DNA of 64,000 bases. Source: Eledone cirrhosa. Its lineage: Eukaryota. Below, one piece after another: positions 27,361-27,481 of this stretch (position 1 is the stretch's first letter; each line of letters begins with the position of its first letter). Under the pieces are notes generated by a model. The model made no database searches and was not told the DNA's origin. It was given only the letters and a program-made list of their open reading frames with translations. The stretch lies in assembly GCA_964016885.1 (NCBI GenBank), contig OZ024740.1, positions 60,202,001-60,266,000 on the forward strand, read 5' to 3'. The position numbers and the translations under genes were made by a program.

Positions 27361-27481
27361 TTATTGACACGTGTTTCTATAACAGTTACATAACCTGAAA
27401 ACAGCTGCTATCTACAAAGTTTTAGTTATGCAGACATTCAATATTTCAATGTTATTATTTACTGTCATTTCATCAGAATAA
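27361..27481 (-). ncRNA. Type I hammerhead, long loop II
   Basis: TTATT CTGATGA A ATGACAGT [74 nt] ACTGTTAT A GAAA CACGTG TC AATAA. Confidence 0.78.

Follow-up and report, generated by a model that had tools for sequence, protein, structure and literature searches.

This report concerns a hammerhead motif at positions 27361-27481 of a 64,000-nt stretch of the Eledone cirrhosa genome (the window, to which all positions refer unless a locus is named), in which a stem II of 8 bp is followed by a 74-nt insert. This raises the question of what kind of element the motif belongs to, if the palindrome in the place of stem III is kept by selection for pairing between two copies, and what the long insert might contribute.

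Anatomy of the motif

The motif lies on the minus strand and matches the type I hammerhead core. The intact core, the 8-bp stem II and the GUC site of the original prediction were confirmed there by coordinates. All core positions are present (C3 U4 G5 A6 N7 G8 A9 / G12 A13 A14, A15.1-U16.1 and H17), and they are invariant in 14 of 14 aligned rows. Three helices surround the core, which is open at stem I, with stem III predicted to form between copies in family A. The parts are as follows, all on the minus strand:

27211..27660, 5'-truncated 3' end of a Hydra-type Penelope-like element, family A (part of the 3' UTR, pseudo-LTR, tail)
27477..27481, stem I, 5' strand (UUAUU)
27470..27476, catalytic core, 5' half CUGAUGA
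27461..27469, unpaired A facing A27378, then the 5' strand of the stem II base (8 bp)
27387..27460, 74-nt insert, predicted as a long and irregular hairpin prolonging stem II, with a 12-nt terminal loop
27448..27452, bulge motif 1, 5' strand (AC-AU-U), partner A-G-GU at 27396-27393
27436..27439, bulge motif 2, 5' strand (G-AA-U), partner A-G-C at 27409-27407 (minimum-energy fold)
27379..27386, 3' strand of the stem II base (8 bp)
27375..27377, catalytic core, 3' half G12 A13 A14
27367..27374, 8-nt palindrome ACACGUGU, predicted stem III between two copies
27366, C17, predicted cleavage after GUC (from sequence and the hammerhead consensus, PMC4209133)
27360..27365, stem I, 3' strand (AAUAA, 27365-27361), reading AAUAAA, a possible polyadenylation signal

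Stem I of family A has 5 bp, and stem II pairs 27468-27461 with 27386-27379. By sequence alignment, the partner of bulge motif 2 is the next AGC, three bases on from the one in the minimum-energy fold. Stem II begins at an A·A mismatch, after which A-U takes the first-pair position in place of the usual G10.1-C11.1, which is typical of hammerheads though not strictly required. Among 18 family representatives the first pair was A-U in six, G-C in five, C-G in four and U-A in three; first pairs other than G-C are also tabulated for Hydra elements (PMC8557442).

Rfam gave no hammerhead match for the window motif up to E=10. The suspicion that standard models could miss such motifs was correct to this extent, but a short-armed control from the same window was missed too, and the miss cannot simply be ascribed to the long arm.

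The parent element

The window copy is inserted in a (TA)n run, as are the copies at the other loci inspected, carries no ORF and is the sole family A copy within the window; this lone, truncated fragment is probably inert. Family A itself is a young and abundant element. With the 450-bp window copy as query, 1,305 candidates were found in the 3.0-Gb, AT- and microsatellite-rich genome, the 40 that were scored showing 97-100% identity, and the exact stem III flanks match at 3,011 genomic places. Longer copies have an ORF with a reverse transcriptase (RT; YRDD) and, at its C-terminal end, a GIY-YIG endonuclease upstream of the hammerhead motif. At locus L204, three motifs of the same sense (at 666, 4262 and 7816, spaced by 3,596 and 3,554 bp) surround two identical, intact ORFs of 773 amino acids, and at locus L037 an inverted fragment is followed by the pseudo-LTR and then by the ORF start. 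The hammerhead of family A is thus located in the pseudo-LTR and repeated in tandem around the ORF, with a unit of about 3.55-3.6 kb, as seen at L037, at L204 and in the longer copies. The ORF begins about 320 nt after the upstream core.

The two domains of the 773-aa protein were assigned by motif reading (YRDD at 352, YVG at 665); Pfam yielded no RT or GIY-YIG match on three partial ORFs. The protein bears RWK at 37 and DKT at 121, has neither DKG nor GxKF/Y, and contains a CxCx5C linker, a CxxC and a CxH at positions 631, 729 and 757, the latter two next to the conserved E and N. RWK, DKT replacing DKG, and the lack of GxKF/Y are among the marks by which Craig et al. (2021; PMC8557442) define the Hydra clade of Penelope-like elements (PLEs), and by these sequence marks the parent is a member of that clade.

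Two insertion ends were found in family A, with inverted copies reaching 45 nt and direct copies 155 nt past the cut, so the RNA that was copied was uncut or rejoined there. Measured in the window, where the ends lie at 27321 and 27211, the tail is about 110 nt long, compared with 30-40 bp described for other PLEs.

Two other ideas on the layout were followed up. An AG|GT-like stretch 17 nt before GAAA, together with an apparent acceptor before the ORF in L034, had suggested a splice; this was rejected because the ORF has its own ATG in L037 and L204, the L034 junction is a truncation, and the AGG belongs to bulge motif 1. An ORF start inside stem II, as in the PAc element described below, was likewise rejected, since the ATGs there reach stops within 19 codons. 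Two contig runs contained the same subfamily variants again and no joints.

The stem III palindrome

The original prediction had pointed to a homologous copy at 12234-12257, with CATATG where the motif has CACGTG. The CATATG is indeed there, but in a copy of a sister family, B, and not of family A; B is 70% identical to A over 286 columns, the TA run included:

12167..12415, plus strand, 5'-truncated end of sister family B, palindrome ACATATGT at 12245-12252, 5' core absent here

As the window B copy breaks off at about 12167, without the CUGAAGA half, no hammerhead fold is possible at this place. Genome-wide, family B yielded 1,725 candidates and 1,896 places with exact flanks, and its protein is about 50-75% identical to that of family A over the matched pieces. 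Full B copies have a CUGAAGA core and a G-C first pair of stem II, where A has A-U.

CACGTG is intact in 96 of 100 family A copies, and CATATG is present in 99 of 100 family B copies, both among the matches listed; such uniformity is expected of young copies and is by itself no test of selection. Could the two palindromes be no more than CpG decay of genomic copies, their symmetry incidental? Single changes of this kind do exist among the 3,011 family A copies, 12 of which read CATGTG and 16 CACATG, but not one has the double change CATATG, which is fixed in the separate family B; the difference is therefore one between families and not between decaying copies. Also, the palindromes of other families (CAATTG, CGTACG, CGATCG, CTCGAG) cannot be derived from CACGTG in this way. 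The chance that decay accounts for the palindromes, an alternative which the original prediction had kept in view, thus appears negligible. CpG decay may have acted in ancestral master elements, but even then the repeated fixation of palindromes would require selection.

The two bases at the palindrome's centre, its centre pair, are complementary in 16 of the 18 family representatives (A-U in eight, U-A in five, C-G in three), against a mean of 6.6 when permuted, and 16 was reached by 1 of 20,000 permutations. By the same approach, stem II positions 1-5 are paired in 82 of 90 cells (47.3 permuted) and stem I in 56 of 72 (36.3 permuted), with double changes across families in three of the four stem I pairs; for all three helices the 18 representatives were chosen by hand with apparent chance rows left out, and the permutations ignore relatedness. 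The ACACGUGU duplex is predicted at -10.3 kcal/mol, compared with +2.4 for the hairpin of a single copy, and unconstrained cofolding of two copies yields the 8-bp palindrome duplex. Since the centre pair is impossible in a single hairpin and the duplex is favoured over it, dimer pairing is well supported. Selection for dimeric stem III pairing, as originally proposed, is supported by these sequence comparisons.

Not every family conforms. In 40 loci, picked by hand as distinct-looking from the first 100 listed core-spacer-core matches, 35 of 47 pattern matches are palindromic. The other 12 comprise three that have no stem II and look like chance, three single changes and six from one family. 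In that family all sampled copies have a non-palindromic U·U or C·U centre (ACAUUUGU or ACACUUGU). At L279:2572-2705 and related loci, which carry the U·U centre (ACAUUUGU), the predicted stem III duplex reaches only -2.9 kcal/mol.

Family B differs from A in having a stem I of 1 bp only. In its predicted best fold the strand after the cut pairs with the arm, and the probability of stem II is 0.08. An 8-nt stretch of the arm (L053:1454-1592) is complementary to the bases directly after the cut site. Such a pairing might act as an off-switch, or it might mark a decayed ribozyme in a family that amplified all the same. An arm/post-cut pseudoknot as a general feature was rejected, the 8-bp match being restricted to family B.

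The extended stem II arm

The insert had been taken for an open loop of 74 nt. It is instead predicted to form an irregular hairpin of some length, closed by an end loop of 12 nt; the whole 92-nt arm is folded into a single long hairpin with a z-score of -3.58. The z-score is -2.3 for the 74-nt insert alone and only -1.45 for the 131-nt motif with flanks. Folded by themselves, 23 of the 37 inserts examined score above -2.

When 14 representatives are aligned with MAFFT, blind to structure, their mean identity is 55%, yet seven columns of the arm are invariant. From these columns the same 2x1 internal loop, 5'-N-A-N-U-3' facing 5'-A-G-N-3', is built twice, at an interval of about one helical turn in the predicted fold. 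Some families show G in place of A in the second loop, for which family A also allows an alternative register. The 11 inner arm pairs are paired at 86.7% over the 14 rows, and at 35-43% when slid. Double changes occur in 6 of these 11 pairs, amounting to 25 cells against 9.0 in shuffles (reached by 0 of 500), where the structure was taken from one aligned row, the rows were picked by hand and the counts are inflated by relatedness. Relatedness affects two measures the least, the count of doubly changed pairs and the diversity of pair types; for the inner helix alone neither is significant, as 61 and 259 of 500 shuffles reach them, and for the whole 24-pair structure 1 and 19 do. RNAalifold recovered the base of stem II from the 14-row alignment (seven pairs, six with double changes), but not the inner helix, and returned no pairs at all on a 24-row alignment. 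Compensatory changes are observed in stems I, II and III and in the arm; for the inner helix of the arm they show in the cell count and not in the two measures that relatedness affects the least.

Of 28 arm clusters, 15 have the twin bulge motif and 13 do not, and no more than 0.5% of shuffled arms carry it; as these same families supplied the pattern, the comparison is descriptive. Long arms without the motif are found in families C, P, Q and M. The families with a linkable endonuclease, A, B, I, G and E, form one group with 100/99 support, outside which the long arms without bulges (Q, M) fall, in a midpoint-rooted tree of 152 columns built from endonuclease fragments of one genome. Rows in which endonuclease and hammerhead stem from different nested elements were disregarded (L194p1686, L202, L027 and L003, and probably L286 and one of two C2 rows).

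Within family A, the frequent arm variants among 75 alignments concern the variable bulge base (8), the end loop (8 and 24) and a pairing-neutral spot (23), and rarer variants (6, 4 and 3 alignments) break pairs. Not all representatives fold equally well: a stem II probability below 0.1 is predicted for those of G, F3, H1 and K, and sampled copies of J1, K and O have 0-1 bp of stem I. A contact between helix I and helix II was looked for among the aligned representatives and no covarying one was found; the candidate bases are all invariant and thus offer no covariation.

Hammerheads elsewhere in the genome

The two further families named in the original prediction, with inserts of 78 nt and roughly 35 nt, are both present in the window:

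4498..4622, minus strand, family C long-armed hammerhead, 78-nt insert (two predicted hairpins), palindrome ACAAUUGU
42203..42279, plus strand, family D hammerhead, 48 nt between core halves, palindrome ACUGUACAGU

Family C has cores at 4617 and 5626 (minus), and its motifs recur at a spacing of about 1,009 bp in the window and at L076. For this insert the predicted fold is a three-way junction with two hairpins (z -6.7). In one subfamily (L296) the palindrome ACAATTGT is replaced by ACGATCGT. At L213, 1.7 kb upstream of a family C motif, there is a PLE ORF whose linker differs, a candidate link between the two. Family D, with cores at 42207 and 47447 (plus), occurs in tandem at about 530 bp with a 10-nt palindrome (these two window sites, L097 and L104). 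No family ORF was found at the inspected loci, and family D resembles a non-autonomous, retrozyme-like repeat.

Two more hammerhead-like motifs lie at 10450 and 22603 (both minus); one is short-armed with ACAUGU, and in the other the core halves are 36 nt apart and stem III is not palindromic. As to other contents of the window, fragments at 1-1949 (minus) and 35647-36303 (minus) resemble, by their motifs, a Ty3/gypsy-type gag-pol and a PLE RT, respectively. At 60791-60875 (minus) there is an Rfam match to tRNA-Sec (47.7, gathering threshold 47), possibly a tRNA-derived repeat.

Outside the window, a short hammerhead with a U3-A8 core (TTGAGAA) was seen 308 nt after the end of a Hydra-like endonuclease (G000 C2:150.0-150.2 Mb, L116), with a 59-nt-arm motif about 1 kb beyond it. 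At G000 C3:200.077-200.085 Mb (L141-L142), at least 15 short-armed hammerheads stand in a retrozyme-like tandem with a spacing of about 468 bp.

A long-arm descriptor blind to the palindrome gave 17 matches in 664 kb (the window plus 600 kb from arbitrary places), compared with 0-1 in each of 20 shuffles and none on the reversed sequence; 13 of the 17 carry perfect even palindromes. With a stricter stem rule, the same 664 kb contained 65 short-armed and 14 long-armed matches. Across the whole genome, CTGANGA-N70-100-GAAACNNNNGTH matched 20,748 times and the reversed pattern 1,045 times, and core halves in this genome can lie anywhere between 12 and 129 nt apart.

Comparison with known systems

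Palindromic helix III and dimer cleavage are the norm for Penelope-like hammerheads (PMC4209133; review PMC6765202), so that the dimer part of our finding is not new and agrees with the published model. The PLE hammerheads of Cervera and De la Pena (2014; PMC4209133) resemble that of family A in their pseudo-LTR site, a helix II base of 7-8 bp, an extra nucleotide after A9, a short helix I, a palindromic helix III, a dimer model and inverted neighbours. In contrast, G10.1-C11.1, highly conserved among them, is not kept in family A, and no counterpart to the long structured helix II extension was found in the parts of that study consulted. The dimer-cleaving PLE variants of Lunse, Weinberg and Breaker (2017), as covered by the review PMC6765202, share the very short palindromic stem III and the PLE association.

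Also close to family A are the Hydra elements tabulated by Craig et al. (PMC8557442), which include an octopus family, Hydra-1_oBim. Common to both are a type I motif close to the 3' end, a mismatch ahead of stem II (many entries read ctgatgat...tgaa), a short self-complementary stem III, an ORF with RWK, DKT and CxCx5C, and (TA)n targets. The tabulated Hydra motifs, however, have a stem II of 3-7 bp and a loop 2 of 3-10 nt in place of a 74-nt insert, mostly a stem III with a 1-3 nt loop in place of a perfect even palindrome, and units generally under 3 kb as opposed to about 3.55 kb. The longest loop 2 in File S2 of that work is about 34 nt, in PLE-X1_sMoe, which is not a Hydra element; relaxed descriptors with longer loops, by Arkhipova et al. 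(2017), are mentioned there as well (PMC8557442).

The hammerhead of PAc, a Poseidon element of Anolis (PMC11167929), likewise lies in a pseudo-LTR, has insertions that run past the cut, and shows two 3' end points, which produce an optional tail. Its ORF starts inside stem II, whereas that of family A follows the upstream core at some distance. The PAc hammerhead is reported to cleave only with the PAc protein, and cleavage to be dispensable for insertion in vitro (PMC11167929); this protein-assisted cleavage has been demonstrated, while cleavage in family A is a prediction. In viral hammerheads a 'long helix II' stands for 6-8 bp (PMC13725137). In the literature, covered mostly at the level of titles and abstracts, we found no description of a long structured arm in Penelope-like hammerheads, and the alignments of Lunse 2017 may include examples; the conserved structured arm predicted for this hammerhead is apparently undescribed.

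Possible roles of the arm

Taken together, we lean towards the explanation that the motif is a hammerhead, predicted to cleave as a dimer only, in the terminal repeat of a Hydra-type Penelope-like element, whose stem II is predicted to continue as a long hairpin with twin bulges that likely bind protein. A read-through transcript of a tandem insertion would carry two motifs, whose ACACGUGU palindromes would pair mutually and complete stem III for both. Cleavage after GUC would then free an RNA of unit length that ends 3' in the arm and has lost AAUAAA; in family A the AAUAAA is the stem I strand itself, so that cleavage would part the RNA from its possible polyadenylation signal. The twin bulges could serve as a site for the RT-endonuclease that the element encodes, or for an RNA-binding protein of the host; the bound protein may aid folding or handle the RNA. 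This binding is the least certain step of the model. A bolder version, which we put forward tentatively and rate as doubtful, is that one Hydra subclade grafted a twin-bulge hairpin onto helix II, and that a dimeric protein, probably the RT-endonuclease itself, gates cleavage or selects the RNA for reverse transcription.

Hammerheads generally tolerate extension of stem II. The motif might accordingly be an ordinary dimer-type Penelope motif whose arm is a tolerated stalk, kept folded away, with the shared bulges inherited and not functional. Arms of other builds in other lineages (C, P, Q, M and the clusters without bulges), the wide span of core-half distances in the genome and the relatedness of the bulge-bearing families would all fit. 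Under such tolerance, however, one would hardly expect the bulge bases to be invariant in 14 representatives while neighbouring pairs changed on both sides, the more so as this invariance spans families whose endonucleases are only 35-60% identical to that of family A. Also, the common variants within family A leave the pairing and the fixed bulge bases intact, the three rarer ones that break pairs notwithstanding. We regard an inert stalk as unlikely, if far from negligible.

Two further proposals seem less probable still. In one of them, the bulges would be RNA-RNA docking sites, for stem I, for the AAUA after the cut or for the partner's arm, that replace the contact of loops I and II and speed cleavage. 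Natural hammerheads require a tertiary contact between helices I and II (PMC4209133), the AAU of AAU(AAA) 3' of the cut is invariant in 14 of 14 aligned rows, and motif 1 stays 12-17 nt from the core in the ten motif families. Yet AAUA starts anywhere between 0 and 9 nt after the cut, an offset that does not visibly follow the position of the bulge motif, the AAUA is consumed by stem I in family A, and AAUAAA-like sequences, which also follow some short-armed motifs, fit a polyadenylation signal; we consider docking improbable. The other proposal, to which we give just a slim chance, is that in this clade the motif has ceased to work efficiently as a ribozyme and serves as a structured 3' signal for dimerisation or RT recognition, its core being conserved for binding. 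Published Penelope hammerheads cleave poorly in vitro (PMC4209133), G10.1-C11.1 has been given up, insertions contain sequence past the cut, and family B reached about 1,900 copies with its single stem I pair. All catalytic core positions and the NUH triplet are nevertheless kept, and stem I covaries across families.

The arm bears on the function of Penelope hammerheads and on their poor cleavage without protein. If a protein does gate this hammerhead through the twin bulges, family A and its relatives would provide a natural case of a hammerhead gated by protein, with a binding module that can be defined and with copies in the thousands. As a conserved and separable part with invariant bulges, the arm offers a concrete site for mutation in binding, cleavage and transposition assays. 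Finally, about 19,700 motifs above background in this one genome have 70-100 nt between their core halves, which suggests that descriptors with a short loop II undercount hammerheads.
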